Position numbers and translations under genes: made by a program
DNA from: Flectonema sp. DT1601
Lineage: Eukaryota
Length of the DNA: 64,000 bases
Reading direction: 5' to 3'
Assembly: GCA_964019425.1 (NCBI GenBank)
Contig: OZ025786.1
Span: forward strand, 930,001-994,000
Notes under the pieces: generated by a model
The model's input: only the letters and a program-made list of their open reading frames with translations
Database searches by the model: none
Told to the model about the DNA's origin: nothing
Shown here: positions 30,645 through 57,054 of the stretch, piece after piece
Layout: each line of letters starts with the position of its first letter
How positions within the stretch are numbered: position 1 is the stretch's first letter

Positions 30645-30687
30645 AACATGGGGTTTCTCTGTAGCCACAAGCAAGCCTGTGTAAGCC

Positions 30688-31838: not shown

Positions 31839-32254
31839 GAATTATTAACACTTCCTGGAAGACTTCAAAAGTACCTACCGTACCAGTGGAAATATTTAAT
31901 TTGTTACAAGAAAACAGGTAACCTTACATGAGCATCGGCTCGAACGGCTCTGGCGAAGCGAGTGAACGAGTCTGATTGCTGAGTATTGTATTCTGTTTTC
32001 TTGTTCTTTTTTTTAATTTATTTCAAACAGGGCAACAGGGCCACCTGTTGGTATCTTTTTATTTTTTTTATTTAAAGAAAAAAGCAGGCTAAGTCGCCTG
32101 AGCTGGCATCGCCAGAATATTTAACTTCACATGGCAATGTCAGCTCGTGAAGGGATCCAGTTGGATCAAAGGTTTTCTCCCCCCCACTCTATTTATCGTC
32201 ATTGGTGCGCACCTTTGAACAGGAAGGCCAACACTGACGGAATTTTTTTGTAGG

Positions 32255-32301
32255 GAGTTGGCGATTTCGCAAACTATTTTTGTTGAATTAGAGGTTTTCC
32301 C
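32255..32301 (+). repeat. Orphan Mutator TIR of the same family as 34929-51965
   Basis: Reverse complement of the TIR starting at 34929, followed by tttattttt and satellite A. Confidence 0.85.
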
Positions 32302-33250
32302 TTTATTTTTTAAAGAAAAAAAAACGGAAAATAAAAATTAGTCGACAAAGTCGAACGATAAAAAAAAACAATGATAACATTGTTTATTCTTTTTTTTTTT
32401 TGTTTTTTTTTTATATTCTTTTTTATTAATTTTGAAAAAAAAACAATCAGTTTAGCGTCTTGACCAGGACGGAAAATAGAAAGTAATCGACATAGTCAAT
32501 CGATAAAAAAACAATGATAACATTGTTTATTCTTTTTTTTTTAAATTCTTTTTATTTATTTTTTAAAGAAAAAAAAACGGAAAATAGAAATTAGTCGACA
32601 AAGTCGAACGATAAAAAAACAATGATAACATTGTTTATTCTTTTTTTTTTATTTTTTTATATTTTTTTTAATTAATTTTTAAAAAAAAAAAACACTCAGT
32701 TTAGCGTCTTGACCAGGACGGAAAATAGAAAGTGATCGACATAGTCGATCGATAAGAAAACAATGATAACATTGTTTATTCTTTTTTTTTATTTTAAATT
32801 CTTTTTATTTATTTTTTAAAGAAAAAAAACGGAAAATAGAAATTAGTCGACAAAGTCGAACGATAAAAAAAAACAATGAAAACATTGTTTATTCTTTTTT
32901 TTGTATTTTTTTTATATTCTTTTTTATTAATTTTGAAAAAAAAAAAACAATCAGTTTAGCGTCTTGACCAGGACGGAAAATAGAAAGTGATCGACATAGT
33001 CGATCGATAAAAAAACAATGATAATATTGTTTATTCTTTTTTTTTTTTTTTTTTTTTTAAATTCTTTTTATTTATTTTTTAAAGAAAAAAATGGAAAATA
33101 GAAAATAGTCAACAAAGTCGAACGATAAAAAAAAACAATGATAACATTGTTTATTCTATTTTTTTATTTTTTTTTTTTTCTATTCTTTTTTATTAATTTT
33201 GAAAAAAAAAAACAATCAGTTTAGCGTCTTGACCAGGACGGAAAATAGAA
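32302..33250 (+). repeat. Hairpin satellite A array
   Basis: Alternating long and short units with cagtttagcgtcttgaccaggacgg, gatcgacatagtcgatc and aacaatgataacattgtt. Confidence 0.95.
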
Positions 33251-33463
33251 ACTCATATTGATTTGACCTGCTATCCTCATATCCCCACAATAATATTATA
33301 CCTTTTCATTTTCTCTTTCCTTTTCTGGTCTTTTTTTTTTTTTTTTTCTTTTTTTTCCTTTTTCATACAACGTTTCTTATTTATATTTTATTTATTTTTT
33401 TTTTTTATTTGGGAAAAACTATAATTCCACAAAAAAGTTTCTGAAATGTCCGATCTCAACATG

Positions 33464-33578: not shown

Positions 33579-34095
33579 GTTTTTTTTTTTTTTTATAGCT
33601 TACTGCCAGTGCATTTCGGGGTCGCCCAAAGTCATGGGGATTTTTTTTTCTCCCAAAAAAAATTTTTTTTCCTACATAAGGCAAGGCCATCCGACGAGAT
33701 GAGTGAAATACACCGAACCTGTGTGACCTGGGCCTAGGACTGACTGCGCCCCTGGATCGGCATAGCTCGGTATGTGCAGGGCCAGGTATAGGGATGGACG
33801 AATTTCGGGTAGAGACACTTGTCCCGACTTGTCAGCTCATACAACCATGAGAATTCAGAGTGTATTAAAATACTAGAGGTGCATCACAAGCGTCAGATAG
33901 GAGACAAGAATTCGATAGAGTGGGAAGTAACGGACTGGGAGCTTTTGGCTCCTGCCCTATTCCCGATGTAAACTTTCTTTTTATTTTTTTTTTTTTAACA
34001 GGCCCAGAGGGCGACAATGACTGTTGCTGACCAAGGAATAATATTCAAATGAATTTTCGTTTCAAAGAAACGAACAGAATTAAGAGAGAGGCAGA

Positions 34096-34129
<34 letters not shown>

Positions 34130-34450
34130 AAAAAAAAAAAAATATGAAGAGGAAATAATCAAACATGAAAAAAATAAAAAAAAAAATAAAATATAAATAA
34201 AAAACGTTGTATGAAAAAGGAAAAAAAAGAAGAAAAAAAAAAAAGACCAGAAAAGGAAAGAGAAAATGAAAAGGTATAATATTATTGTGGGGATATGAGG
34301 ATAGCAGGGAGATGCTCTTTTTTTTTTTTTTTTTTTACTTATTATTTAAAAAAAAGGAAACAATCAGTTTAGCGTCTCGATCGGGACGGAAAATAGAAAT
34401 TAATCGACATAGTCGATCGATAGAAAAAAAAACAATGATAACATTGTTTA

Positions 34451-34485
<35 letters not shown>

Positions 34486-35160
34486 CTTTTAATTATTTTA
34501 AAGAAAAAACAATATTCTTTTTTATTAATTTTGAAAAAAAAAACAATCAGTTTAGCGTCTTGACCAGGACGGAAAATAGAAAGTGATCGACATAGTCGAT
34601 CGATAAAAAAACAATGATAACATTGTTTATTCTTTTTTTTTTTTTTTTAAATTCTTATTATTTATTTTTTAAACAAAAAAAAACGGAAAATAAAAATTAG
34701 TCGACAAAGTCGAACGATAAAAAAAAACAATGATAACATTGTTTATTCTTTTTTTTTTTGTTTTTTTTTTATATTCTTTTTTATTAATTTTGAAAAAAAA
34801 AACAATCAGTTTAGCGTCTTGACCAGGACGGAAAATAGAAAGTAATCGACATAGTCGATCGATAAAAAAACAATGATAACATTGTTTAATCTTTTTTTTT
34901 TTTTTTTAAATTCTTTTTATTTATTTTTGGGAAAACCTCTAATTCAACAAAAATAGTTTGCGAAATCGCCAACTCCCTACAAAAAAAAGTTATCCACCAG
35001 GACTCGAACTTGACCCGAAAAATTGACCATCGGCCGAAATATTAGGGAAAAAAGTTACCGCACCGGGACTCGAACTTGACAGATTTAAAAAAAAAAAAAA
35101 ATTCTTAATTTTTATTACAAAGTTTTTTTGTTGCAGCTTTCCACAAAAAAAAATTAAAAG

Positions 35161-35822
35161 ATGCCTGCTACTACTTATGCTGTTGGAGACTACTTCCGCA
35201 CACAGGAAGAACTGATCCAGACTGTGTTTCGGGTGAACACTGTGCTAGGACACAGCTGCAGGGTGCAGAGAAGGTGCCCCACGTACCTCACCCTCGCCTG
35301 TCCAAACGACGAATGCCAATGGACGGTGAAGGCAAAGGTGGTGGAGGGGGAGTGCCGCGTGACGAAGGTGGAGAGTCACACTTGCGCACCTGGGGAAGCG
35401 AGGCGGGGCTGCGATGGCACGTCGGACTGGATTTCCAGTATTTTGGAAGAGAAGGTAGCCAGTCAGTTTGACTACGGGCCGAAACAAGCGGCAATTGACT
35501 TAAAGTCATTCCGCGACGTTGCGGTCCCCAAAAAGACTGTGGAGAGGGGTCTGGAGAAGGCCAAGGAGAAGGTCCACGGGTTGATGGGCGAGCAGTACGG
35601 CCTGATAGCACCGTACCTCACCGACCTCCAACAGCGCAACAGCCAGATGTACTGGAACATCGAGAAGAGAGATGATGGTGCTTTTGAGAGGGTGTTTTGG
35701 TCTTTTGTGAGGCCAGAAACAGCTGAGCACCTGGCACCTGTCATCTGCAGCGATGCATGCAGTCTGACGGGTCCGTTTGGTGGGTGCTTGTTCATCACCG
35801 TGGGGATCGACGCCGAAAGGGT
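35161..35822 (+). pseudogene. MuDR transposase, 5' part
   Basis: Zn DNA-binding region (CPNDECQW...HTC) and the first catalytic Asp (CSDAC...GIDAE), cut by the insertion at 35823. Confidence 0.9.
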
Positions 35823-36280
35823 GAATTTCGAAAAGGTGGGAAGTAACGGACTGGGAGCTTTTGGCTCCTGCCCTATTCCCGATGTAAACTTTCTTTTTAT
35901 TTTTTTTTTTTTTTTTAACAGGCCCAAAGGGCGACAATGATGGTTGCTGACCAAGGAATAATATTCAAATGAATTTTCGTTTCAAAGAAACGAACAGAAT
36001 TAAGAGAGAGGTAGAGAAAAAAAAAAAAAAAAAAAAAAAAAAAAGAAAGAATAGAAAAAAAATATGAAGAGGAAATAATCAAACATGAAAAAAAAAAAAA
36101 AAAAATAAAATATAAATAAAAAACGTTGTATGAAAAAGGAAAAAAAGAAAAAAAAAAGACCAGAAAAGGAAAGAGAAAATGAAAAGGTATAATATTATTG
36201 TGGGGATATGAGGATAGCAGGGAGATGCTCTTTTTTTTTTTTTTTTTTTCTTTTTTTTTTTATTTATTATTTAAAAAAAG

Positions 36281-37088
36281 AAACAATCAGTTTAGCGTCT
36301 CGATCAGGACGGAAAATAGAAATTAATCGACATAGTCGATCGATAGAAAAAAAACAATGATAACATTGTTTATTCCTTTTTTTTTTTTTTTTTTTTTTAT
36401 TCTTTTTATTTATTTTTAAAGAAAAAACAATCAGTTTAGCGTCCTGACCAGGACGGAAAATTGAAAGTGATCGACATAGTCGATCGATAGAAAAAAAACA
36501 ATGATAACATTGTTTATTCCTTTTTTTTTTTTTTTTTTTTTTATTCTTTTTATTTATTTTTAAAGAAAAAACAATCAGTTTAGCGTCCTGACCAGGACGG
36601 AAAATTGAAAGTGATCGACATAGTCGATCGATAGAAAAAAAACAATGATAACATTGTTTATTCCTTTTTTTTTTTTTTTTTTTTTTATTCTTTTTATTTA
36701 TTTTTAAAGAAAAAACAATCAGTTTAGCGTCCTGACCAGGACGGAAAATTGAAAGTGATCGACATAGTCGATCGATAGAAAAAAAACAATGATAACATTG
36801 TTTATTCTTTTTTTTTTTTTTTTTTTTTTTAAATCCTTTTAATTATTTTAAAGAAAAACAATCAGTTTAGCGTCTTGACCAGGGCGGAAAATAGAAAGTA
36901 ATCGACATAGTCGATCGATAAAAAAAAAACAATGATAACATTGTTTATTCCTTTTTTTTTTTTTTTTTTTTTATTCTTTTTATTTATTTTTAAAGAAAAA
37001 ACAATCAGTTTAGCGTCCTGACCAGGACGGAAAATTGAAAGTGATCGACATAGTCGATCGATAAAAAAACAATGATAACATTGTTTAT

Positions 37089-37125
<37 letters not shown>

Positions 37126-37902
37126 CTTTTAATTATTTTTTAAAGAAAAAACAATCAGTTTAGCGTCTTGACCAGGACGGAAAATAGAAAGTGATCGACA
37201 TAGTCGATCGATAAAAAACAATGATAACATTGTTTATTCTTTTTTTTTTTTTTTTTTTTTTTTTTAATCCTTTTTATTATTTTAAAGAAAAAACAATCAG
37301 TTTAGCGTCTTGACCAGGACGGAAAATAGAAAGTGATCGACATAGTCGATCGATAAAAAAACAATGATAACATTGTTTATTCTTTTTTTTTTTTTTTTTT
37401 TAAATTCTTTTTATTTATTTTTAAAGAAAAAAAAACGGAAAATAAAAATTAGTCGACAAAGTCGAACGATAAAAAAAAAACAATGATAACATTGTTTATT
37501 CTTTTTTTTTTTGTTTTTTTTTATTCTTTTTTATTAATTTTGAAAAAAAAAACAATCAGTTTAGCGTCTTGACTAGGACGGAAAATAGAAAGTAATCGAC
37601 ATAGTCGATCGATAAAAAAAAACAATGATAACATTGTTTACTCTTTTTTTTTTTTTTTTTTTAAATTCTTTTTATTTTAAAAAGAAAAAAAACGGAAAAT
37701 AGAAATTAGTCGACAAAGTCGAACGATAAAAAAAAAACAATGATAACATTGTTTATTCTTTTTTTTTTATTTTTTTTTTTTATATTCTTTTTTATTAATT
37801 TTGAAAAAAAAACAATCAGTTTAGCGTCTTGACCAGGACGGAAAATAGAAAGTGATCGACATAGTCGATCGATAAAAAAAAACAATGATAACATTGTTTA
37901 TT

Positions 37903-37936
<34 letters not shown>

Positions 37937-38305
37937 CTTTTTTTTTTTTAAAGAAAAAACAATCAGTTTAGCGTCTTGACCAGGACGGAAAATAGAAAGT
38001 AATCGACATAGTCGATCGATAAAAAAAACAATGATAACATTGTTTATTCTTTTTTTTTTTTTTTAAATCTTTTTATTTATTTTTTAAAAAGAAAAAAAAA
38101 AAACGGAAACTAGAAATTAGTCAACAACGTCGAACGATAAAAAAAAACAATGATAACATTGTTTATTCTTTTTTTTTTATTTTTTTTTGTATTCTTTTTT
38201 ATTAATTTTGAAAAAAAACAATCAGTTTTGCGTCTTGACCAGGACGGAAAATAGAAAGTGATCGACATAGTCGATCGATAAAAAAACAATGATAACATTG
38301 TTTAT

Positions 38306-38343
<38 letters not shown>

Positions 38344-39047
38344 CTTTTTATTATTTTTAAAGAAAAAACAATCAGTTTAGCGTCTTGACCAGGACGAAAA
38401 ATAGAAAGTGATCGACATAGTCGATCGATAAAATAAAACAATGATAACATTGTTTATTCTTTTTTTTTTTTTTTTTTTTTTTTTAAATCCTTTTTATTAT
38501 TTTTAAAGAAAAAACAATCAGTTTAGCGTCTTGACCAGGACGAAAAATAGAAAGTGATCGACATAGTCGATCGATAAAAAAACAATGATAACATTGTTTA
38601 TTCTTTTTTTTTTTTTTTTTTATTTTAAATCCTTCTTTTTATTTTTTAAACCTTTTAATTATTTTTTAAAGAAAAAACAATCAGTTTAGCGTCTTGACCA
38701 GGACGGAAAATAGAAAGTAATCGACATAGTCGATCGATAAAATAAAAACAATGATAACATTGTTTATTCCTTTTTTTTTTTTTTTTATTCTTTTTATTTA
38801 TTTTTAAAGAAAAAACAATCAGTTTAGCGTCCTGACCAGGACGGGAAATAGAAAGTGATCGACATAGTCGATCGATAAAAAAACAATGATAACATTGTTT
38901 ATTCTTTTTTTTTTTTTTTTTTTTTTTTTTAATTCTTTTTATTTATTTTTTAAAGAAAAAACATCAGTTTAGCGTCTTGACCAGGACGGAAAATAGAAAT
39001 TAGTCGACAAAGTCGATCGATAACAAAACAATGATAACATTGTTTAT

Positions 39048-39078
<31 letters not shown>

Positions 39079-39860
39079 CTTTTTATTTATTTTTTAAAGA
39101 AAAAACAATCAGTTTAGCGTCCTGACCAGGACGGAAAATAGAAAGTAATCGACATAGTCGATCGATAAAAAAAACAATGATAACATTGTTTAATCTTTTT
39201 TTTCTTTTTTTTTTTTTTATTCTTTTTATTTATTTAGAAAAAACAATCAGTTTAGCGTCTTGACCAGGACGGAAAATAGAAATTAGTCGACAAAGTCGAT
39301 CGATAAAAAAACAATGATAACATTGTTTATTCTTTTTTTTTTTTTTTTTTTTTAAATTCTTTTTATTTATTTTTTAAGAAAAAAAAACGGAAAATAGAAA
39401 TTAGTCGACAAAGTCGAACGATAAAAAAACAATGATAACATTGTTTATTCTTTTTTTTATTTTTTTTTTTTATTCTTTTTTATTAATTTTGAAAAAAAAA
39501 AAAAACCAATCAGTTTAGCGTCTTGACCAGGACGGAAAATAGAAAGTAATCGACATAGTCGATCGATAAAAAAACAATGATAACATTGTTTATTCTTTTT
39601 TTTTTTTTTTTTTTAAATTCTTTTTATTTATTTTTTAAGAAGAAAAACGGAAAATAGAAATTAGTCGACAAAGTCGAACGATAAAAAAACAATGATAACA
39701 TTGTTTATTCTTTTTTTTATTTTTTTTTTTATATTCTTTTTTATTAATTTTGAAAAAAAAAAAAAAAACAATCAGTTTAGCGTCTTGACCAGGACGGAAA
39801 ATAGAAAGTAATCGACATAGTCGATCGATAAAAATACAATGATAACATTGTTTAATCTTT
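36281..39860 (+). repeat. Hairpin satellite A array (~90-130-bp units)
   Basis: Three conserved palindromes per unit, separated by variable T and A tracts. Confidence 0.95.
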
Positions 39861-40100
39861 TATAATTTTTTATTTTTTTTTTTGTTTTAAAAAAAAAAAA
39901 AAAAAACAAGCGGAATTGATCATAATGGGTGGTAGGGGTTGTTATAACTTCGTTTGAAAATTCTTCTTTTTTGATTTCTTTTTTTTTTTCTTTTTACAGG
40001 AGTTAAGATCACTTTCAGGAGACAACACATTAACAAGAGCAGCAAGCAGAGTTGACACTATCAATTCAAATTTGAAATACCGGGAATTAATTTACAAGGA

Positions 40101-40195
40101 GGTATCTCAAGTGACTTGGTATCTCTAGCGTGTCGGTATCTCTGGAGTGCTGGTATCTCGTATGTGCGTTGGTATCTCATGAGTGATGGTATCTC
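40101..40195 (-). repeat. Six GAGATACC motifs at 17-19-nt spacing (also 46457-46551, 61211-61305, 63412-63506)
   Basis: ggtatctc occurs six times with differing spacers. Confidence 0.9.
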
Positions 40196-40523
40196 TTGTG
40201 CATTAGAGAAACGAAAAAGAATGTCATGACCATGACGGAAGAATTGAGGAATTGAGTTAACATGTTCAATTTAACTTATTTAAACTTTTTTTTTTTTTTT
40301 TTAACAGACCGTAACTATTTGAAAATAAAATGTAGATGGGAAACAGTGAAAAGTAAAATGGATGATAAAATTAAATGAGAAATATGACATAACAGACCAG
40401 ATAGAGAGTATTAAAAGGAAATTGAAAAGGAAAAGAGAAACTAGGTTAACACTTATTTAAAATTAAGACCGGTTAGTCAGTTTAAGGTCTTGACTAGGAC
40501 CAACAAAAAAGAAAGAAAAAAAA

Positions 40524-41360
40524 ATTAACGATCAAGCTGAGCTGATCTTGTTTTTATTACAAATAGGGGAGCGGGAGGGATGGAAGGAATAGAGGAAAAA
40601 AAAAGAAAAGGTTGATCAATTGGATCTGATCGTCGAGAAGAAGAAATTATTTTAAAGGTTGATCGGTATAGCCGATCGTTGAGAAAAATAAACAGATATA
40701 AATACAATCAGTTTAAATTAAAAAAAGAAAAAAAGATTAACGATCAAGCTGAGCTGATCTTGTTTTTATTACAAATAGGGGAGCGGGAGGGATGGAAGGA
40801 ATAGAGGAAAAAAAAAGAAAAGGTTGATCAATTGGATCTGATCGTCGAGAAGAAGAAATTATTTTAAAGGTTGATCGGTATAGCCGATCGTTGAGAAAAA
40901 TAAACAGATATAAATACAATCAGTTTAAATTAAAAAAAGAAAAAAAGATTAACGATCAAGCTGAGCTGATCTTGTTTTTATTACAAATAGGGGAGCGGGA
41001 GGGATGGAAGGAATAGAGGAAAAAAAAAAGAAAAGGTTGATCAATTGGATCTGATCGTCGAGAAGAAGAAATTATTTTAAAGGTTGATCGGTATAGCCGA
41101 TCGTCGAGAAAAATAAACAGATATAAATACAATCAGTTTAAATTAAAAAAAGAAAAAAAGATTAACGATCAAGCTGAGCTGATCTTGTTTTTATTTAAAA
41201 TTAGGGGAGCGGGAGGGATGGAAGGAATAAAGGAAAAAAAAAAAAAAAAAAAGGTCGATCAATTGGATCTGATCGTCGAGAAGAAGAAAACAATTATTTA
41301 TAAAAAAAAATGGTCGGTATAGCCGATCGTTGAGAAAAGAACAGATATAAATACAATCGG
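40524..41360 (+). repeat. 212-bp repeat B, four copies (three at ~46880-47505, two at ~60470-60885, two at ~62700-63120)
   Basis: Identical 60-aa ORFs 212 nt apart. Each unit has GATC-closed hairpins. Confidence 0.92.
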
Positions 41361-41855
41361 TTTTGGTGATCGACGAGTGGAGCGATCACTTGACAAGAAG
41401 GAAAAAGAAAGGACCGATTAATTGGGGCTTTGATTGTATTCCCAAGGCATGTTTTTTTTTTTTTTTTTTTATTATTCATTTACATTATTATTTTTTTTTT
41501 TTTTTTTAAATTAATAATCACATTTTGTTCAAAAATATTTCATATTAGAGTAAAAGAAAAAGAAAAAAAGAAATAAGAGAAAAAAAAAAAAAAAAAAAAA
41601 CCATTGCTGGCCCCCTCACCACTCATAGAGGATGAGGAGGCCAGTAAGGCGTCACTCAAATCTATGCCAAGCCTTGGGAACTTGGATTAGGGTTTAGACC
41701 ATTTATAATTAACAATTAACAATTAACCTGATTAACGTTATGATCTGACGGACATAAACATATCGATAAAATAATACAAACAAAAACGAACAATAAATAA
41801 TAAATAAGCTAAAAAACTAAATAAACAAAGTGATGTGAAAGTAAGGAAAAGAGAA

Positions 41856-43154
41856 TTACAAGGGGGTGGAGTCACCGTGAACGTCATCAGCAGAACATCT
41901 CCTTCGATTGTAACGATATCTTGATGGAGGGGTTCGTTTTTTCAGAGTTGAACGCTCAGACTTTCTCGGCGGAGTTTCATTTTCCTCATGTTCTTCTGTG
42001 TCTGGCGGACTCAAACCTTCTGCCCATGAAGCTAATTGGAACTTCAGGGCCGCAATTTGAGACCGTGCCAAGGCGAGTTGAGCATTTAAATCGCTCGCCA
42101 GTCCCGTTAACATCATGGATTGCTCAAGCTGCTCTGCGTGAGTTGTACACCGTTGGTGATTCAGCTCCGAGAGGCGAAGTTGGGCATCCAGAAGTTGTTC
42201 TGAGAGCTCTGCCGCTTTCTCGTTTGTTTCGAGAGAGTCATCTACTGCTCGACAGTAATTCTCGAGTAAGTCAATCCTACCCTCGGACCATTGTCTCGCA
42301 ATAGGTGTATTCTCTTTAACGGAGATAACGTGACTCTCTTGTCGTAAAATCTTGGTCGGCGTGCGGTCGAGAGCTTCACTCTGCGGCATTGTCGGAGGAA
42401 TTGAGGCTAGAGGACAAAGAGGGGTGATATAATTAAGGGTAGGGATAAGGGGTTTAATAAGAGGAGTAAAAAGACTACTCGTAGTTGTAAAGAGCGAGAG
42501 GTAGTTCTTTGCTATCTTCATCATAGCAACAGATTCATATAGAACGGGGGTTCGGGGGGAAACTTGTTGACTAAAGTGGGTCATACGGGGACGCGCGGCA
42601 CGCAAACTCTCGACCTCCTGTTGAGTATAGAAAAGTCTTATTTTACTTTCTCTTTCCTCATTACATTTGGTCTCCAATTCGTTCGACAGAAGAACAAACC
42701 TTTGATGGTAATTAAAGAGCGCCATTTCCGATAGGTCTGCTCTCTGAGTCAGATTTGCGAGCTCACGTTTCCTGTAATCTTCCACTAAGTCATATTGTCG
42801 AACTAGTGCAGAAAGAGAAGTCTTCGATTCATCGCGTTCTGCTGTTAACCGTTGAATTACTCCTTCCAGAAGTTCATATTCTTTTCTATCTTTTTCAATA
42901 ATTAAAACAGGGGGCGCAGGAGGAAGTGAGGATGGATCCTGGTTGGTAGCTTTGATCTCAACAGGTAATCCATTTAGTAACTGCTTGTCTTTCTCGAGGG
43001 AGGCTGACATCGCATTAAAGTAAAATAAAAATAGAACATAAAAAATTCGTTCTTTCATTTGCTCTAATTCGTTTTCTAAAATCTGGCATTTCAAGGAAAG
43101 TTTCAGCCTTAATTTTCCTTCTTTTTTTTTGTACAAGGGGGTTTGAGAACCCAT
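41856..43154 (-). CDS. Element-encoded coiled-coil protein of unknown function, copy 1
   Basis: The 432 aa from MGSQ are identical in three copies despite DNA differences. The ORF-track extension to 43331 crosses the unit junction. Confidence 0.75.
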   Translation of the reverse strand: MGSQTPLYKKKEGKLRLKLSLKCQILENELEQMKERIFYVLFLFYFNAMSASLEKDKQLLNGLPVEIKATNQDPSSLPPAPPVLIIEKDRKEYELLEGVIQRLTAERDESKTSLSALVRQYDLVEDYRKRELANLTQRADLSEMALFNYHQRFVLLSNELETKCNEERESKIRLFYTQQEVESLRAARPRMTHFSQQVSPRTPVLYESVAMMKIAKNYLSLFTTTSSLFTPLIKPLIPTLNYITPLCPLASIPPTMPQSEALDRTPTKILRQESHVISVKENTPIARQWSEGRIDLLENYCRAVDDSLETNEKAAELSEQLLDAQLRLSELNHQRCTTHAEQLEQSMMLTGLASDLNAQLALARSQIAALKFQLASWAEGLSPPDTEEHEENETPPRKSERSTLKKRTPPSRYRYNRRRCSADDVHGDSTPL

Positions 43155-43614
43155 GTCAGATTGAGTTCTTATCACTATAGCGAAATCAGCAGGAAGTGTT
43201 TGCGATCCCGTTGAGGCTGAATTTCGATAAGTGGGAAGTAACGGACTGGGAGCTTTTGGCTCCTGCCCTATTCCCGACGTAAACTTTCTTTTTATTTTTT
43301 TTTTTTTTTTAACAGGCCCAAAGGGCGACAATGATGGTTGCTGACCAAGGAATAATATTCAAATGAATTTTCGTTTCAAAGAAACGAACAGAATTAAGAG
43401 AGAGGTAGAGAAAAAAAAAAAAAAAAAAAAAAAGAAAGAATAGAAAAAAAATATGAAGAGGAAATAATCAAACATGAAAAAAAAAAAAAAAAATAAAATA
43501 TAAATAAAAAACGTTGTATGAAAAAGGAAAAAAAGAAAAAAAAAAGACCAGAAAAGGAAAGAGAAAATGAAAAGGTATAATATTATTGTGGGGATATGAG
43601 GATAGCAGGGAGAT

Positions 43615-43652
<38 letters not shown>

Positions 43653-43670
43653 TTATTATTTAAAAAAAGG

Positions 43671-43905
43671 AAACAATCAGTTTAGCGTCTCGATCAGGAC
43701 GGAAAATAGAAATTAATCGACATAGTCGATCGATAGAAAAAAAACAATGATAACATTGTTTATTCCTTTTTTTTTTTTTTTTTTTTATTCTTTTTATTTA
43801 TTTTTAAAGAAAAAACAATCAGTTTAGCGTCCTGACCAGGACGGAAAATTGAAAGTGATCCACATAGTCGATCGATAGAAAAAAGACAATGATAACATTG
43901 TTTAT

Positions 43906-43938
<33 letters not shown>

Positions 43939-44330
43939 CTTTTAATTATTTTAAAGAAAAAACAATCAGTTTAGCGTCTTGACCAGGACGGAAAATAGAA
44001 AGTGATCGACATAGTCGATCGATAAAAAACAATGATAACATTGTTTATTCCTTTTTTTTTTCTTTTTTTTTTATTCTTTTTATTTATTTTTAAAGAAAAA
44101 ACAATCAGTTTAGCGTCCTGACCAGGACGGAAAATAGAAAGTAATCGACATAGTCGATCGATAAAAAAAAAACAATGATAACATTGTTTATTCCTTTTTT
44201 TTTTCTTTTTTTTTATTCTTTTTATTTATTTTTAAAGAAAAAACAATCAGTTTAGCGTCCTGACCAGGACGGAAAATTGAAAGTGATCGACATAGTCGAT
44301 CGATAAAAAAACAATGATAACATTGTTTAT

Positions 44331-44361
<31 letters not shown>

Positions 44362-45135
44362 CCTTTTAATTATTTTTTAAAGAAAAAACAATCAGTTTAG
44401 CGTCTTGACCAGGACGGAAAATAGAAAGTGATCGACATAGTCGATCGATAAAAAACAATGATAACATTGTTTATTCTTTTTTTTTTTTTTTTTTTTTTTT
44501 AATCCTTTTTATTATTTTAAAGAAAAAACAATCAGTTTAGCGTCTTGACCAGGACGGAAAATAGAAAGTGATCGACATAGTCGATCGATAAAAAAACAAT
44601 GATAACATTGTTTATTCTTTTTTTTTTTTTTTTTTTAAATTCTTTTTATTTATTTTTAAAGAAAAAAAACGGAAAATAAAAATTAGTCGACAAAGTCGAA
44701 CGATAAAAAAAAACAATGATAACATTGTTTATTCTTTTTTTTTTTGTTTTTTTTTATATTCTTTTTTATTAATTTTGAAAAAAAAACAATCAGTTTAGCG
44801 TCTTGACCAGGACGGAAAATAGAAAGTAATCGACATAGTCGATCGATAAAAAAAACAATGATAACATTGTTTACTCTTTTTTTTTTTTTTTTTTAAATTC
44901 TTTTTATTTTAAAAAGAAAAAAAACGGAAAATAGAAATTAGTCAACAAAGTCGAACGATAAAAAAAAAAACAATGATAACATTGTTTATTCTTTTTTTTT
45001 TATTTTTTTTTTTATATTCTTTTTTATTAATTTTGAAAAAAAAAACAATCAGTTTAGCGTCTTGACCAGGACGGAAAATAGAAAGTGATCGACATAGTCG
45101 ATCGATAAAAAAAAAACAATGATAACATTGTTTAT

Positions 45136-45172
<37 letters not shown>

Positions 45173-46215
45173 CTTTTTTTTTTTTTAAAGAAAAAACAAT
45201 CAGTTTAGCGTCTTGACCAGGACGGAAAATAGAAAGTAATCGACATAGTCGATCGATAAAAAAAACAATGATAACATTGTTTATTCTTTTTTTTTTTTTT
45301 TTTAAATCTTTTTATTTATTTTTTAAAAAGAAAAAAAAAAACGGAAAATAGAAATTAGTCAACAACGTCGAACGATAAAAAAAAAAACAATGATAACATT
45401 GTTTATTCTTTTTTTTTTTATTTTTTTTTGTATTCTTTTTTATTAATTTTGAAAAAAAAACAATCAGTTTTGCGTCTTGACCAGGACGGAAAATAGAAAG
45501 TGATCGACATAGTCGATCGATAAAAAAACAATGATAACATTGTTTATTCTTTTTTTTTTTTTTTTTTTTTTTAAATCCTTTTTATTATTTTTAAAGAAAA
45601 AACAATCAGTTTAGCGTCTTGACCAGGACGAAAAATAGAAAGTGATCGACATAGTCGATCGATAAAAAAACAATGATAACATTGTTTATTCTTTTTTTTT
45701 TTTTTCTTCTTTTTTTTAAATCCTTCTTTTTATTTTTTAAAGAAAAAACAATCAGTTTAGCGTCTTGACCAGGACGGAAAATAGAAAGTAATCGACATAG
45801 TCGATCGATAAAATAAAAACAATGATAACATTGTTTATTCCTTTTTTTTTTTTTTTTATTCTTTTTATTTATTTTTAAAGAAAAAAACGGAAAATAGAAA
45901 GTAATCGACATAGTCGATCGATAAAAAAACAATGATAACATTGTTTATTCCTTTTTTTTTTTTTTTTTTTTTAAATTCTTTTTATTTATTTTTTAAGAAA
46001 AAAACGGAGAATAGAAATTAGTCGACAAAGTCGAACGATAAAAAAACAATGATAACATTGTTTATTCTTTTTTTTATTTTTTTTTTTATATTCTTTTTTA
46101 TTAATTTTGAAAAAAAAAAAAAAACAATCAGTTTAGCGTCTTGACCAGGACGGAAAATAGAAAGTAATCGACATAGTCGATCGATAAAAATACAATGATA
46201 ACATTGTTTAATCTT
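43671..46215 (+). repeat. Hairpin satellite A array
   Basis: Same variant order as in unit 1, with fewer units. Confidence 0.95.
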
Positions 46216-47999
46216 TTATAATTTTTTATTTTTTTTTTTGTTTTAAAAAAAAAAAAAAAAAACAAGCGGAATTGATCATAATGGGTGGTAGGGGTTGTTA
46301 TAACTTCGTTTGAAAATTCTTCTTTTTTGATTTCTTTTTTTTTTTCTTTTTACAGGAGTTAAGATCACTTTCAGGAGACAACACATTAACAAGAGCAGCA
46401 AGCAGAGTTGACACTATCAATTCAAATTTGAAATACCGGGAATTAATTTACAAGGAGGTATCTCAAGTGACTTGGTATCTCTAGCGTGTCGGTATCTCTG
46501 GAGTGCTGGTATCTCGTATGTGCGTTGGTATCTCATGAGTGATGGTATCTCTTGTGCATTAGAGAAACGAAAAAGAATGTCATGACCATGACGGAAGAAT
46601 TGAGGAATTGAGTTAACATGTTCAATTTAACTTATTTAAACTTTTTTTTTTTTTTTAACAGACCGTAACTATTTGAAAATAAAATGTAGATGGGAAACAG
46701 TGAAAAGTAAAATGGATGATAAAATTAAATGAGAAATATGACATAACAGACCAGATAGAGAGTATTAAAAGGAAATTGAAAAGGAAAAGAGAAACTAGGT
46801 TAACACTTATTTAAAATTAAGACCGGTTAGTCAGTTTAAGGTCTTGACTAGGACCAACAAAAAAGAAAGAAAAAAAAATTTAACGATCAAGCTGAGCTGA
46901 TCTTGTTTTTATTACAAATAGGGGAGCGGGAGGGATGGAAGGAATAGAGGAAAAAAAAAAGAAAAGGTTGATCAATTGGATCTGATCGTCGAGAAGAGGA
47001 AATTTTTTTAAAGGTTGATCGGTATAGCCGATCGTTGAGAAAAATAAACAGATATAAATACAATCAGTTTAAATTAAAAAAAGAAAAAAAGATTAACGAT
47101 CAAGCTGAGCTGATCTTGTTTTTATTACAAATAGGGGAGCGGGAGGGATGGAAGGAATAGAGGAAAAAAAAAGAAAAGGTTGATCAATTGGATCTGATCG
47201 TCGAGAAGAAGAAATTATTTTAAAGGTTGATCGGTATAGCCGATCGTCGAGAAAAATAAACAGATATAAATACAATCAGTTTAAATTAAAAAAAGAAAAA
47301 AAGATTAACGATCAAGCTGAGCTGATCTTGTTTTTATTTAAAATTAGGGGAGCGGGAGGGATGGAAGGAATAAAGGAAAAAAAAAAAAAAAAAAGGTCGA
47401 TCAATTGGATCTGATCGTCGAGAAGAAGAAAACAATTATTTATAAAAAAAAATGGTCGGTATAGCCGATCGTTGAGAAAAGAACAGATATAAATACAATC
47501 GGTTTTGGTGATCGACGAGTGGAGCGATCACTTGACAAGAAGGAAAAAGAAAGGACCGATTAATTGGGGCTTTGATTGTATTCCCAAGGCATGTTTTTTT
47601 TTTTTTTTTTTTTATTATTCATTTACATTATTATTTTTTTTTTTTTTTTTTAAATTAATAATCACATTTTGTTCAAAAATATTTCATATTAGAGTAAAAG
47701 AAAAAGAAAAAAAGAAATAAGAGAAAAAAAAAAAAAAAAAAAACCATTGCTGGCCCCCTCACCACTCATAGAGGATGAGGAGGCCAGTAAGGCGTCACTC
47801 AAATCTATGCCAAGCCTTGGGAACTTGGATTGGGGTTTAGACCATTTATAATTAACAATTAACAATTAACCTGATTAACGTTATGATCTGACGGACATAA
47901 ACATATCGATAAAATAATACAAACAAAAACGAACAATAAATAATAAATAAGCTAAAAAACTAACTAAACAAAGTGATGTGAAAGTAAGGAAAAAGAGAA

Positions 48000-50240
48000 T
48001 TACAAGGGGGTGGAGTCACCGTGAACGTCATCAGCAGAACATCTCCTTCGATTGTAACGATATCTTGATGGAGGGGTTCGTTTTTTCAGAGTTGAACGCT
48101 CAGACTTTCTCGGCGGAGTTTCATTTTCCTCATGTTCTTCTGTGTCTGGCGGACTCAAACCTTCTGCCCATGAAGCTAATTGGAACTTCAGGGCCGCAAT
48201 TTGAGACCGTGCCAAGGCGAGTTGAGCATTTAAATCGCTCGCCAGTCCCGTTAACATCATGGATTGCTCAAGCTGCTCTGCGTGAGTTGTACACCGTTGG
48301 TGATTCAGCTCCGAGAGGCGAAGTTGGGCATCCAGAAGTTGTTCTGAGAGCTCTGCCGCTTTCTCGTTTGTTTCGAGAGAGTCATCTACTGCTCGACAGT
48401 AGTTCTCGAGTAAGTCAATCCTACCCTCGGACCATTGTCTCGCAATAGGTGTATTCTCTTTAACGGAGATAACGTGACTCTCTTGTCGTAAAATCTTGGT
48501 CGGCGTGCGGTCGAGAGCTTCACTCTGCGGCATTGTCGGAGGAATTGAGGCTAGAGGACAAAGAGGGGTGATATAATTAAGGGTAGGGATAAGGGGTTTA
48601 ATAAGAGGAGTAAAAAGACTACTCGTAGTTGTAAAGAGCGAGAGGTAGTTCTTTGCTATCTTCATCATAGCAACAGATTCATACAGAACGGGGGTTCGGG
48701 GGGAAACTTGTTGACTAAAGTGGGTCATACGGGGACGCGCGGCACGCAAACTCTCGACCTCCTGTTGAGTATAGAAAAGTCTTATTTTACTTTCTCTTTC
48801 CTCATTACATTTGGTCTCCAATTCGTTCGACAGAAGAACAAACCTTTGATGGTAATTAAAGAGCGCCATTTCCGATAGGTCTGCTCTCTGAGTCAGATTT
48901 GCGAGCTCACGTTTCCTGTAATCTTCCACTAAGTCATATTGTCGAACTAGTGCAGAAAGAGAAGTCTTCGATTCATCGCGTTCTGCTGTTAACCGTTGAA
49001 TTACTCCTTCCAGAAGTTCATATTCTTTTCTATCTTTTTCAATAATTAAAACAGGGGGCGCAGGAGGAAGTGAGGATGGATCCTGGTTGGTAGCTTTGAT
49101 CTCAACAGGTAATCCATTTAGTAACTGCTTGTCTTTCTCGAGGGAGGCTGACATCGCATTAAAGTAAAATAAAAATAGAACATAAAAAATTCGTTCTTTC
49201 ATTTGCTCTAATTCGTTTTCTAAAATCTGGCATTTCAAGGAAAGTTTCAGCCTTAATTTTCCTTCTTTTTTTTTGTACAAGGGGGTTTGAGAACCCATGT
49301 CAGATTGAGTTCTTATCACTATAGCGAAATCAGCAGGAAGTGTTTGCGATCCCGTTGACATGAGTTCAGGTGGGGGAGTCTGGAAAGAGATGGAAGAAAT
49401 AGAAGAGAATGACAAGGAGAGTCCAGTGAGCTCATCCTCATCTAACAAAACAGAAGGGGCCGGGGAGGAAGAACCATTGGCAATAAGTAGAATAGAAAGA
49501 GCCGATGCGTAACAAGTTTGCCAGATAAAACATTTCTCAAGCCACGATCTTTCAATGGTGAGCTTTTCGATCGTTTTCAGTTTTGTTACTTTGTGGATTT
49601 TGACTTCTTCCACAGGGAAGATTTCTTTACCATCTTTTATAAAACTTGCAGTGGCAGGTTCTTCTTTAATGCTGCGCATTAGTGGTCTTGAATGCCACGT
49701 GGGGAGGTTCCTCGTCTGGAACAGAACATATGAGCACTGTCTGGCGATTCTGGTGCATTCACAAAATAAAGCTTTTGTTGGTGCTAAAGGTGAACCGATG
49801 TGACGTGTCCAGATGTTCAGCTGGTCCATGCAGATGTTTCCTCGTACGCCAACTTCAATAGTAAAAATGTTACAGTCGAAGCCATTAGCGATGATCGAGT
49901 CTCTTAGCTTTAGGTATTTCTTTTCCTTTAAGACATGAGAGGTTTCGAAACGATCTTCATTTGGACACGTCAGCTCCAGAATCAGTGCTCTTTTCGCAAA
50001 AAAAGAATAAATAAAAATGTCTGGTCTTAGAGAGGACGAGACATGGCACACTTCAAGAGGAACAATTAGGCGGTTATCACCGACATCGTCGAGGATGACC
50101 CAATCATTCGCTAGTGAAAGTTCGCCTGTCTCTTTAGAAATTCTTTCTAGGGGTTTATTTTCCCCTGTTTTTAAAAAAGTTTGAGAGGGAGGCGGGAGGT
50201 TTTCTTTTCTTTTGTTGGCTTTTATTATCAACTCTTCCAA
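48000..50240 (-). CDS. 5'-truncated ORF: HERO-like restriction-like endonuclease domain in frame with the coiled-coil protein
   Basis: LANDWVILDD...LRPDIFI...ILELTCPNE...KEKKY..L...IEVGVRG...SYVLFQTR..W matches the RLE of non-LTR retrotransposons. No stop occurs before the coiled-coil region. Confidence 0.8.
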   Translation of the reverse strand: MEELIIKANKRKENLPPPSQTFLKTGENKPLERISKETGELSLANDWVILDDVGDNRLIVPLEVCHVSSSLRPDIFIYSFFAKRALILELTCPNEDRFETSHVLKEKKYLKLRDSIIANGFDCNIFTIEVGVRGNICMDQLNIWTRHIGSPLAPTKALFCECTRIARQCSYVLFQTRNLPTWHSRPLMRSIKEEPATASFIKDGKEIFPVEEVKIHKVTKLKTIEKLTIERSWLEKCFIWQTCYASALSILLIANGSSSPAPSVLLDEDELTGLSLSFSSISSISFQTPPPELMSTGSQTLPADFAIVIRTQSDMGSQTPLYKKKEGKLRLKLSLKCQILENELEQMKERIFYVLFLFYFNAMSASLEKDKQLLNGLPVEIKATNQDPSSLPPAPPVLIIEKDRKEYELLEGVIQRLTAERDESKTSLSALVRQYDLVEDYRKRELANLTQRADLSEMALFNYHQRFVLLSNELETKCNEERESKIRLFYTQQEVESLRAARPRMTHFSQQVSPRTPVLYESVAMMKIAKNYLSLFTTTSSLFTPLIKPLIPTLNYITPLCPLASIPPTMPQSEALDRTPTKILRQESHVISVKENTPIARQWSEGRIDLLENYCRAVDDSLETNEKAAELSEQLLDAQLRLSELNHQRCTTHAEQLEQSMMLTGLASDLNAQLALARSQIAALKFQLASWAEGLSPPDTEEHEENETPPRKSERSTLKKRTPPSRYRYNRRRCSADDVHGDSTPL

Positions 50241-50335
50241 GAAGATAACAATGCGTTTTAGAGTTCAATGAGTTCAGGTGGGGGAGTCTGGAAAGAGATG
50301 GAAGAAATAGAAGAGAATGACAAGGAGAGTCCAGT

Positions 50336-51620
50336 TATGCCTTTAGCCTACTCGGTTGGAGTGGTCGAAAACCACGAGGGATGGGCATACCACCACACCC
50401 ACCTGAAGAACCATTTTGGCGACCGACTGAAAAGGTTCGTCTTGATTTCCGACAGGCAGAAGGGGCTGGAGTCCGACACCTCCCTGCACGGAGTCGTGTT
50501 GCACCATGCTTTGTGCGTGCAGCACTTGGTTGGCAACGTGGCCAGCCAGACGAAGATACCGAAGGTTGATGCGACATTGTTAGTGTGGAAGATTAGCAAG
50601 CTAAGCATCGAAACAGAGGCCGAGACGTGCCTTCAAGGGATAAAGGACAAGTACGGAAAACGTGCCCATCGTTATCTGCTTAAGTCAAACCTTGAAAGGT
50701 GGTCAGACGCTTACTGGCCTTCGGGTGTCCCCAGATGCAACACCTACACCTCCAACGCGTCGGAATGCGTCAACGCCGTGTTCAAGGAGACTCGGCAAGG
50801 GAGTCTTTTATCTGTGATAAAGGACACCCGTTGTTGGACAACGGACACCTACGCCAGCCGACGCGAGATGCATGCTGACGTTCCTGCGAACTATCCGGTT
50901 CCGACAGTGGAGTTGTTCGTTCGGGGGAGTGCCACCTCAGCAAACAACCATGCTGTCACACCACTGGGTGAAGGACAATGGGAAGTACGACGAGAACACG
51001 GGTGGTTGGTGTGTCTGAAAGATGGAACATTAGTGTGTGGCTGTCCTGATTTCCTCCGCCACAACCTACCTTGCATCCACACAGTCAGAGTATTGACACA
51101 TCAGCGCAATAATGTCTTTACTCACGAAACCTCTTTGCCTCCCTACACCAGAATGAGCAGCTACAGAGAGCTCTACCGCGTCTCTGTGTACCCACAGGCG
51201 ATACCTACCGGACAGCTTCAATTCGACGGCACGAAACCCCCTGTTGTGCAGAAGGGTGTCGGGAGAAGAAGAAAGGTTCGGATTCGCTCCAACGGTGAAT
51301 CAAGGACCCTGACGTGCTCCAACTGCGACGCTAAAGGTCACAACAAACGAAGTTGTCGGAAACCAACCTCGCAATCATCAAAGCCAGCAGCAAAGCCAGC
51401 AGCGAAGAAAGCAGCAGCAAAGCCAGCAGCAAAGCCAGCAGCAAAGCCAGCAGCAAAGAAAGTAGCAGCAAAGCCAGCAGCAAAGACAGTCAAGAAGAAG
51501 CGAAAGCGATGTGAATCCTCTGATTCGGACTCACAATCTTTAAGTGCACAGTCATCCTACTCATCTTACTCAACTTCAACGACAGAGTCTTACTCAACTT
51601 CAACGACAGATTCTGACTGA
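50336..51620 (+). pseudogene. MuDR transposase, 3' part
   Basis: MPLAY, ISDRQKGL, LCVQH, TSNASE, SWIM (CGC...PCIH), CCHC knuckle and KPAA repeats. It rejoins the 5' part in frame to give 648 aa. Confidence 0.92.
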
Positions 51621-51782
51621 CTTACTGGCCACTGACTTGTTCAACAATGTTTATCCCTCTCTAAAAAGAAAACTCTGATTGCCATATGCATGTGTTTTGA
51701 CACTTTTGCCACGTCTGGTCTTATTTTGAATTGCCTTTGTCACGCTCTCTTTTTCCATCAGGTTTTGGGTAAAAAAAAAAAA

Positions 51783-51853
51783 GGTCGTATCGGGATTCGA
51801 GCCGGGTACCTCTGGGATATAAGGTGGAGGTACTACCTCTCGACTAACGGGTC
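51783..51853 (-). promoter_or_regulatory. tRNA-like A-box/B-box sequence in the Mutator subterminal region
   Basis: Minus strand GACCCGTTAGTCGAGAGGT...CCGGCTCGAATCCCG. The acceptor and anticodon stems do not pair, so it is not a functional tRNA. Confidence 0.45.
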
Positions 51854-51965
51854 GCTGTAAAAAAAAGTTTTTTCCCTCTTTTTATTCATATCGGGGTGGG
51901 ACGTTTTTTTTTTGTGATGAGTTGGCGATTTCGCAAACTATTTTTGTGGAATTAGGGGTTTTCCC

Positions 51966-54955
51966 TTTATTTTTTAAAGAAAAAAAAACGGAAAATAGAA
52001 ATTAGTCGACAAAGTCGAACGGTAAAAAAACAATGATAACATTGTTTATTCTTTTTTTTTATTTTTTTTATATTTTTTTTAATTAATTTTGAAAAAAAAA
52101 ACAATCAGTTTAGCGTCTTGACCAGGATGGAAAATAGAAAGCGATCGACATAGTCGATCGATAAGAAAACAATGATAATATTGTTTATTCTTTTTTTTTA
52201 TTTTAAATTCTTTTTATTTATTTTTTAAAGAAAAAAAAAACGGAAAATAGAAATTAGTCGACAAAGTCGAACGATAAAAAAAAACAATGATAACATTGTT
52301 TATTCTTTTTTTTGTATTTTTTTTATATTCTTTTTTATTAATTTTGAAAAAAAAAAAAAAACAATCAGTTTAGCGTCTTGACCAGGACGGAAAATAGAAA
52401 GTAATCGACATAGTCGATCGATAAAAAAAACAATGATAACATTGTTTATTCTTTTTTTTTTTTTTTTTTTTAAATTCTTTTTATTTATTTTTTAAAAAGA
52501 AAAAAAAACGGAAAATAGAAATTAGTCAACAAAGTCGAACGATAAAAAAAAAAACAATGATAACATTGTTTATTCTTTTTTTTTAATTTTTTTTTCTATT
52601 CTTTTTTATTAATTTTGAAAAAAAAACAATCAGTTTAGCGTCTTGACCAGGACGGAAAATAGAAAGTGATCGACATAGTCGATCGATAAAAAAAAACAAT
52701 GATAACATTGTTTATTCTTTTTTTTTATTTTAAATTCTTTTTATTTATTTTTTAAAGAAAAAAAAAGGAAAATAGAAATTAGTCGACAAAGTCGAACGAT
52801 GAAAAAAAACAATGATAACATTGTTTATTCTTTTTTTTATTTTTTTTTTTTATTCTTTTTTATTAATTTTGAAAAAAAAAACAATCAGTTTAGCGTCTTG
52901 ACCAGGACGGAAAATAGAAAGTAATCGACATAGTCGATCGATAAGAAAACAATGATAACATTGTTTATTCTTTTTTTTTTATTTTAAATTCTTTTTATTT
53001 ATTTTTTAAAGAAAAAAACTGAAAATAGAAATTAGTCGACAAAGTCGAACGATAAAAAAAACAATGATAACATTGTTTATTCTTTTTTTATTTTTTTTTT
53101 ATATTCTTTTTTATTAATTTTGAAAAAAAAAAAACAATCAGTTTAGCGTCTTGACCAGGACGGAAAATAGAAAGTAATCGACATAGTCGATCGATAAAAA
53201 AAACAATGATAACATTGTTTATTCTTTTTTTTTATTTTAAAATCTTTTTATTTATTTTTTAAAGAAAAAAACTGAAAATAGAAATTAGTCGACAAAGTCG
53301 AACGATAAAAAAAACAATGATAACATTGTTTATTCTTTTTTTTTTATTTTAAATTCTTTTTATTTATTTTTTAAAGAAAAAAACTGAAAATAGAAATTAG
53401 TCGACAAAGTCGAACGATAAAAAAAACAATGATAACATTGTTTATTCTTTTTTTATTTTTTTTTTATATTCTTTTTTATTAATTTTGAAAAAAAAAAAAC
53501 AATCAGTTTAGCGTCTTGACCAGGACGGAAAATAGAAAGTAATCGACATAGTCGATCGATAAAAAAAACAATGATAACATTGTTTATTCTTTTTTTTTAT
53601 TTTAAAATCTTTTTATTTATTTTTTAAAGAAAAAAACTGAAAATAGAAATTAGTCGACAAAGTCGAACGATAAAAAAAACAATGATAACATTGTTTATTC
53701 TTTTTTTTTATTTTAAATTCTTTTTATTTATTTTTTAAAGAAAAGAAACGGAAAATAGAAATTAGTCCGATAAAAAAAAAAACAATGATAACATTGTTTA
53801 TTCTTTTTTTTATTTTTTTTTTTTATATTCTTTTTTATTAATTTTGAAAAAAAAAAACAATCAGTTTAGCGTCTTGACCAGGACGGAAAATAGAAATTAG
53901 TCGACAAAGTCGAACGATAAAAAAACAATGATAACATTGTTTATTCTTTTTTTTTTTTTTTTATTTCTTTTTATTTATAAAAAAAAACAATCAGTTTAGC
54001 GTCTTGACCAGGACGGAAAATAGAAAGTGATCGTCATAGTCGATCGATAAAAAAACAATGATAACATTGTTTATTCTTTTTTTTTATTTTAAATTCTTTT
54101 TATTTATTTTTTAAAGAAAAAAAAAAACGGAAATAGAAATTAGTCGACAAAGTCGAACGATGAAAAAAAACAATGATAACATTGTTTATTCTTTTTTTTA
54201 TTTTATTTTTTTTTATTCTTTTTTATTAATTTTGAAAAAAAAAACAATCAGTTTAGCGTCTTGACCAGGACGGAAAATAGAAAGTAATCGACATAGTCGA
54301 TCGATAAGAAAACAATGATAACATTGTTTATTCTTTTTTTTTATTTTAAATTCTTTTTATTTATTTTTTAAAGAAAAAAAACTGAAAATAGAAATTAGTC
54401 GACAAAGTCGAACGATAAAAAAACAATGATAACATTGTTTATTCTTTTTTTTTTTTTTTTATTTCTTTTTATTTATAAAAAAAAACAATCAGTTTAGCGT
54501 CTTGACCAGGACGGAAAATAGAAAGTGATCGACATAGTCGATCGATAAAAAAACAATGATAACATTGTTTATTCTTTTTTTTTATTTTAAATTCTTTTTA
54601 TTTATTTTTTAAAGAAAAAAAAAACGGAAAATAGAAATTAGTCGACAAAGTCGAACGATGAAAAAAAACAATGATAACATTGTTTATTCTTTTTTTTATT
54701 TTTTTTTTTTTTATTAATTTTGAAAAAAAAAAAAACAATCAGTTTAGCGTCTTGACCAGGACGGAAAATAGAAAGTAATCGACATAGTCGATCGATAAGA
54801 AAACAATGATAACATTGTTTATTCTTTTTTTTTATTTTAAATTCTTTTTATTTATTTTTTAAAGAAAAAAACTGAAAATAGAAATTAGTCGACAAAGTCG
54901 AACGATAAAAAAACAATGATAACATTGTTTATTATTTTTTTTTTTTTATTTTAAA
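51966..54955 (+). repeat. Hairpin satellite A array (continuation of 34359-34928)
   Basis: Resumes in register after the Mutator TSD. Confidence 0.95.

Positions 54956-55202: not shown

Positions 55203-55234
<32 letters not shown>

Positions 55235-57023: not shown

Positions 57024-57054
<31 letters not shown>

Follow-up and report, generated by a model that had tools for sequence, protein, structure and literature searches.

Introduction

Retrotransposons without long terminal repeats (non-LTR) that encode a restriction-like endonuclease (RLE) underlie RNA-templated gene insertion tools, according to passages of PMC13580325 and PMC13708176. Descriptions present them as compact elements with a single open reading frame (ORF) in which the endonuclease comes last. 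In R2 (R2Bm, R2Tg; PDB 8gh6, 9dou, 9nl2), the ORF combines a reverse transcriptase (RT), a CCHC zinc knuckle and the RLE, copies are 5'-truncated, the 3' untranslated region (UTR) is structured and the target is 28S rDNA. Elements of the HERO clade are RLE-encoding and largely non-site-specific according to passages of PMC4640811 (also PMC9004415, PMC7650587 and PMC5035012).

Here we analyse a repeat family in Flectonema sp. DT1601, in a stretch of 64,000 nucleotides (assembly GCA_964019425.1, contig OZ025786.1, positions 930,001–994,000, forward strand; referred to as the window). The original prediction, made from this sequence, had treated the repeats at 35823–50335 as an unclassified large mobile element between Penelope/Terminon elements and Helentrons. 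This classification had to be given up: the window itself encodes an RLE (49695–50262), and related proteins supply an R2-like non-LTR RT. With high confidence, we regard the repeats as 5'-truncated copies of a non-LTR RLE retrotransposon which has one ORF comprising RT, CCHC knuckle, RLE and a C-terminal extension of 564 residues, a candidate packaging domain, and which probably uses target-primed reverse transcription to insert. This family matches the non-site-specific RLE non-LTR retrotransposons; it is not a mobile element of a new class. Within this known class it is unusual in its post-RLE extension, in having two old alleles of that extension and in a 3' UTR of 4,781–6,033 bp which is filled with hairpin arrays and lacks poly(A).

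Results

The ORF and its enzymes

The stretch 35823–50335 consists of two minus-strand copies arranged head-to-tail, 7.1 kb (43215–50335) and 7.4 kb (35823–43214) in length. Their junction at 43214/43215 bears out the predicted head-to-tail arrangement, and their ORF parts are 99.85% identical. The 7.1-kb copy contains a 754-residue ORF (48000–50264, minus strand), which had been described as coiled-coil. This may hold for the extension (48000–49694, minus strand, subfamily A allele), which is in frame with the RLE and predicted to be helical or coiled-coil, but the first 190 residues are the RLE domain (49695–50262, minus strand).

The 754-residue frame has no significant match in Pfam. Compared with 1.84 billion representative sequences, it gave 1,181 matches at E ≤ 0.001, and, with the family itself excluded, the best 150, which were listed, mainly cover residues 1–200. 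The motifs RPD, ELTxPxE, K and ExGxRG are conserved in an alignment of 66 RLE sequences. The predicted RLE model reaches a predicted local distance difference test score (pLDDT) of 90, and the four top-ranking PDB matches are all R2 proteins (9dou with E 7.9e-5, 9nl2, 9nl3 and 8iby), at 12–20% identity in the structure matches.

A search for close proteins yielded three, from clusters of 47, 1 and 235 sequences with 15, 1 and 15 members listed. In near-identical stored proteins (handles beginning with P), RT, CCHC knuckle, RLE and extension are joined in one frame. P0027 holds the whole RT, the knuckle, the RLE and the start of the extension; P0029, P0026 and P0015 hold part of the RT, the RLE and then most or all of the extension. 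The fusion of RLE and extension recurs in nine stored proteins. Pfam matches to RVT_1 and zf-RVT were obtained in P0003, P0027, P0029 and P0015 (RVT_1 E 2e-26 in P0003), and for P0027 the solved structures that match best are those of R2 proteins (E 6.6e-33). The RT and RLE motifs look Hero-like, which makes HERO a tentative clade placement. The knuckle, CVLC..H..C in P0001 and P0003, has a zf-RVT match and is followed by the RLE fold; it fits the spacing CX2-3CX7-8HX4C given for RLE elements in a passage of PMC5678591.

Contigs from each of four public sequencing runs match 47745–50262, whole or in pieces, in collinear order. They extend upstream of 50262 into sequence encoding GRFTWRHDSV of the zinc-knuckle region, which precedes the window ORF in P0001; the window copy is therefore 5'-truncated at 50262, just past the knuckle. 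Tiling of P0031, P0003 and P0029, which overlap in one frame, gives a probable single ORF of at least 1,740 residues, with putative N-terminal zinc fingers, seen by eye as Cys/His motifs in P0031 and without a Pfam match. Together with the 3' UTR, this results in an element of at least 10–11 kb. Judged by sequence, the family has been active recently, as predicted, since its ORF copies within the window are 99.7–99.9% identical.

Enzymes considered in the original prediction were RT–RLE, a Penelope-type RT and an HUH–helicase, and the first of these was found. No Pfam match to GIY-YIG, HUH or helicase domains, the last two being those of a Rep–helicase of the Helitron/Helentron type, was seen in the element ORF or its relatives. 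The RT is R2-like and comes with an RLE, unlike Penelope-type RTs, which have GIY-YIG or lack an endonuclease. Neither the terminal pattern described below nor P0027 gave a match in metagenome scans.

Modules of the 3' UTR

Self-BLAST, module mapping and a tandem-repeat search reproduced the predicted succession of modules: read along the ORF strand, the ORF is followed by a GC-rich stem-loop, the 212-bp B repeats, six copies of GAGATACC, satellite A and a terminal module. In the 7.1-kb copy (all on the minus strand) the GC-rich stem-loop lies at 47740–47869 (further copies at 41597–41726, 60110–60239 and 62336–62465) and three B units at 46862–47505 (four at 40508–41363; two each at 60465–60903 and 62697–63136). 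The GAGATACC block, located by motif count, is at 46440–46569; the four blocks of this motif hold 6, 6, 6 and 5 copies (total 23), with none elsewhere in the window. The satellite A array (43622–46258) has about 20 units of 110–150 bp according to 20 BLAST unit matches. Of 77 matches to its hairpin, AAACAATG-TTAT-CATTGTTT, in the different arrays, 74 are identical, whereas the T/A runs vary. The terminal module (43215–43612) carries a 3' stem-loop, ends in ..CGAAATTCAGCC without poly(A) and abuts the next copy head-to-tail. Unit numbers differ between the two near-identical copies: about 27 against 20 for satellite A and four against three for B.

Compared with shuffled sequences, folding energies were better for the terminal stem, at z −2.4 and −2.5, and for the GC-rich stem (z −3.4), a satellite A unit (z −2.3) and one of the two halves of a B unit (z −3.3). 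There was no excess for the other half of the B unit (z −1.1) or the GAGATACC block (z +0.8); the predicted hairpins are borne out for the former but not for the latter two.

The terminus could be aligned at all six predicted places (33908, 35823, 43219, 55424, 57246 and 58382), with 98 of 138 columns invariant. The 3' ends agree within a few bases and the 5' ends differ, units ranging from 202 bp (58382–58583) to 7.1 and 7.4 kb as had been proposed. The terminus had been called fixed; it is shared, but not to the base, ending in ..TTC, ..TTCA, ..TTCAG or, twice, ..TTCAGCC, directly after the stem-loop (z about −2.4) and without poly(A). A shared 3' end with 5'-truncated copies and no terminal repeats is the pattern of RLE non-LTR elements.

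An Rfam scan produced 15 matches, every one far below the gathering score, and detected no ribozyme in the element. For the hammerhead in particular, there was no Rfam match within 30000–64000, and none of 11 core-pattern matches lies inside the element. Three motifs resembling splice acceptors, each a T-tract with ACAG, were noted antisense to the 3' UTR (35900, 39978, 40286 and equivalent positions); they could affect host transcripts upon antisense insertion.

Target sites and junctions

Six different 3' flanks are present in the window, and further flanks can be read from stored proteins. The insertions lie in a MuDR gene, in an RT/RNase H gene and in the element itself; 28S rDNA was not encountered as a target, and there is no rRNA within 30000–64000. 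The two insertions in coding sequence had been proposed to restore their frames without duplication. Both of these bounded insertions lack a target-site duplication (TSD) of at least 5 bp, but the MuDR gene has lost one codon. In the cluster of MuDR proteins, six of nine members read GIDAERHVMP at the empty site (one is the interrupted copy, two lack the motif), and the His is present in all seven members of a sister cluster; the window flanks encode GIDAER and VMP without the His, which indicates that the insertion removed one codon. The MuDR region is hardly covered by contigs from the public runs, which provide no empty site. For the RNase H insertion, restoration is deduced from the frame, with one extra base left and no empty site seen.

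At its 5' end the 7.1-kb copy carries an additional segment (50263–50335, minus strand), a 68-bp copy of 49360–49427 plus five bases, which does not occur in the collinear contigs and likely arose from template jumps. In the adjacent copy, the truncation falls at the position corresponding to 49358; both observations together suggest a preferred break at this position. We also considered the 68-bp repeat as a TSD around a separate RLE fragment. This was rejected, because RLE and extension are in frame in nine other proteins and contigs run through 49360–49427.

Comparable joins are present in other copies: satellite sequence is fused to RT in P0026 and P0006, while P0033, P0036 and P0006 have the ORF joined with the terminal module. 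Antisense termini are legible in P0023, P0028, P0035 and P0152. Inverted termini had been taken for a feature of the element; in the window, termini in opposite orientations instead belong to separate nested or independent insertions, and two of the arrays or modules are split by Mutator-type elements with 9-bp TSDs.

The C-terminal extension

The extension has no Pfam family, and a search of the Atlas returned generic coiled-coil clusters alone, with scores of at most 0.90; folding the entire ORF from its single sequence gave a model of too low quality for a search. An env-like membrane protein was rejected as a candidate, the best 19-residue hydropathy of 1.4 being too low.

The A and B alleles of the extension can be compared over 220 codons, the last of the extension. 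Here, the nonsynonymous rate (dN) is 0.38 and the synonymous rate (dS) 1.75, and the resulting dN/dS of about 0.22 is rough because dS is near saturation. The ratio of the uncorrected proportions (pN/pS) is 0.44 (bootstrap 0.36–0.55) for the same codons, and third positions account for 48 of 92 differences in a helical block of 98 codons. All three measures indicate that the extension is a protein domain under purifying selection. The proteins P0022 and P0008 are 98–100% identical at residues 151–600, 92% at 601–700 and 35–62% beyond. By this comparison, two old extension alleles (about 50% identical) sit on a recently shared, near-identical RT–RLE.

In a survey of 232 stored proteins, many of them fragments, 166 reach the RLE end. 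The sequence behind it comprises at most 40 residues in 96 of these and over 300 in 24, nine of the latter belonging to this family. The closest RT–RLE relatives found (P0184–P0195, P0153 and P0176; 24–34% identity) likewise carry an extra domain behind the RLE, but theirs is a recognisable enzyme, UCH or DarT-like, while here it is a helical protein without a family match. At the position of the extension, UCH occurs in 13 of 23 relative matches and in eight of 20 long-tailed proteins chosen for scanning, and a DarT-like domain in five of the same 20. In a quick RT tree, which contains unnamed rows and no named references, the UCH-bearing rows group with an SH-like approximate likelihood ratio of 100 and the present family lies outside that group.

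Two of these fusions deserve mention in their own right. A large group of RLE proteins ends in a UCH/USP deubiquitinase (P0184–P0195, P0199, P0201, P0202, P0141, P0127 and P0102). In P0107, P0113, P0146, P0153 and P0176, a DarT-like single-stranded DNA ADP-ribosyltransferase directly follows the RLE (best E 4e-25), and P0176 combines knuckle, RLE, DarT and UCH. The DarT–RLE fusion is possibly more novel than our main finding. The literature searched contained no relevant paper on a C-terminal UCH, DarT or coiled-coil domain in RLE elements, nor any on an RLE element with the present architecture; subscription journals, Repbase and Dfam lay outside the search.

Further copies and neighbouring features

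The two head-to-tail copies interrupt the transposase gene of a Mutator/MuDR DNA transposon (34929–51965, plus strand) which has terminal inverted repeats (TIRs) and a 9-bp TSD, TTTATTTTT. The second copy (35823–43214, minus strand) is 5'-truncated within the extension and has a 6.0-kb 3' UTR. The transposon in turn splits an older minus-strand copy of terminal module and satellite A (33908–54957, in the parts 33908–34928 and 51966–54957), which probably resumes at 55429–55506 as subfamily B. A short copy in the opposite orientation (55142–55428, plus strand) has in front of it 187 bp of a different repeat (54962–55148; 96% identical to 30685–30870). A terminal-module copy (33267–57246, plus strand; parts 33267–33410 and 56981–57246) is split by a second Mutator-type element (33411–56980) with the 9-bp TSD TTTTTATTT. 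The 202-bp copy (58382–58583, minus strand, 5'-truncated) lies within the RT/RNase H-like gene of another retroelement. A subfamily A piece without terminus (58676–61374, plus strand) is joined by an 11-bp fold-back to a subfamily B copy (61386–64000, plus strand), which contains the B allele of the extension over its last 220 codons, has a homologous 3' UTR and continues past the window edge.

The frames of the other retroelement, RT (RVT_1 E 3e-9) and RNase H-like, are at 57197–58675 (plus strand), and the RLE family has inserted three times within these 1.5 kb; we presume this element to be DIRS/Ngaro-like. At 31039–31838 (plus strand), part of an RT gene of a different, LINE-like kind is directly attached to two units of satellite A; a further template jump may have joined them. 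A lone 59-bp MuDR TIR within 32243–33251, identical to the left TIR at 34929, is found at the corresponding place in a further array of satellite A. A broken RT element without a Pfam match (23880–30078, minus strand), whose RT motifs we take to be Penelope-like, encloses a hAT-like transposon (zf-BED, DUF659; about 25200–28880), a piece of which (27546–28084) recurs at 55815–56356. Host genes of ordinary kinds, recognised by eye in 1–23000, are calpain-like, adenylate cyclase, sulfatase, GST, PAK-like kinase and caspase-like (a weak Atlas lead).

Discussion

The family shares with HERO (HEROTn, HERODr, HERO-1_BF) the RLE and mostly non-specific targets, but its 564-residue post-RLE domain, its repeat-filled 3' UTR of several kilobases and its length of at least 10 kb set it apart from the HERO elements as described in the passages cited above. 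With R2 it has in common the ORF with RT, CCHC knuckle and RLE, the 5' truncation and the structured 3' UTR; unlike R2, it is found outside 28S rDNA, in many unrelated targets, and the RLE is not its last domain.

The shared 3' end, the variable 5' ends and the mosaics are consistent with target-primed reverse transcription accompanied by template jumps. The chemical steps of the following scheme are modelled on R2 biochemistry as given in passages of PMC13580325 and PMC5678591. The element protein would bind the structured 3' end of its RNA, and the RLE would nick DNA with little sequence preference. The nick would prime cDNA synthesis within a few bases of ..UUCAGCC, at times with 0–5 nucleotides of microhomology. 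The RT may then halt early or jump to another template, which would produce the head-to-tail pair, the 68-bp 5' segment and the A/B mosaic, and jumps may likewise account for variable repeat numbers and for the exchange of extension alleles on one RT–RLE. Finally, the 5' end would be joined with loss of a few target bases. Template jumping is described for the R2 RT in passages of PMC8857657, and passages of PMC13708176 name deletions at junctions, microhomology and non-templated bases. Recombination between copies may also be the source of joins. The extension could bind the repeated UTR hairpins as an oligomerisation and RNA-packaging domain, by analogy with the coiled coils of LINE ORF1p. 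This packaging or scaffold role, which we favour, is rated apart from the identity of the element and is proposed tentatively; its chances are somewhat below even.

Several points weigh against our reading. No single stored protein runs from the N-terminal fingers to the end of the extension; the complete ORF was put together by tiling copies that overlap, with no DNA copy of full length behind it. The stored proteins of the family probably share their source assembly with the window, because P0210 is the product of the interrupted MuDR in the window itself, and thus represent further copies, not independent samples. For the extension, the single-sequence model has low confidence (pLDDT 34), the heptad scan is weak and the dN/dS value is rough, as stated. 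The 68-bp segment, the head-to-tail join and the A/B join are without read support, as the contigs from the runs showed no joint.

The alternative that survives best accepts the same RLE retrotransposon but sees in the extension an effector in conflict with the host, and in the arrays by-products of RT slippage. We consider this a serious contender, if short of an even chance, and a host-directed role of the extension about as likely as packaging. Relatives hold enzymes (UCH, DarT-like) at the same position, the exchange of two divergent alleles on one RT–RLE would fit an arms race, and repeat numbers differ between copies that are otherwise 99.7% identical; on the other hand, Pfam, sequence and Atlas searches assign the extension neither an enzyme family nor a specific look-alike, and the hairpin stems of the array are nearly invariant next to variable T/A runs.

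That the tandem and mosaic arrangement is an artefact of assembling a repeat-rich region is very improbable. The arrays are indeed long and homopolymer-rich, and their junctions lack reads, but the nested elements have kept exact 9-bp TSDs, substitutions between copies are consistent, similar joins occur in P0006, P0026, P0033, P0036 and P0053, and the ORF part is collinear in four runs. Least probable of all is a Penelope/Athena-Terminon-like element or Helentron, with which the locus shares partial tandems and inverted truncated copies (typical of Penelope-like elements in passages of PMC8557442), a coiled-coil coding sequence, internal satellites and the lack of TSDs, but which is largely refuted by the RT–RLE fusion: the RT class and the endonuclease differ, GIY-YIG, HUH and helicase matches as well as hammerheads in the element are lacking, and the coiled coil is fused behind the RLE.

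For the RLE retrotransposon proposed here, one may speculate that it represents a Hero-like branch with an exchangeable cargo slot behind the RLE. The slot would hold a deubiquitinase or a DarT-like enzyme elsewhere and an ORF1p-like scaffold coating the UTR hairpins here, with cassettes of cargo and UTR swapped between subfamilies by template jumping. We regard this picture as rather unlikely to be right in full. Active, at least 10 kb long, with a selected domain of 564 residues behind the RLE and a fixed hairpin end without poly(A), the element offers a natural test of how an RNA 3' end is chosen, how far C-terminal fusions are tolerated and how long cargo is carried, and its two extension alleles on one RT–RLE show an exchange of modules in progress.

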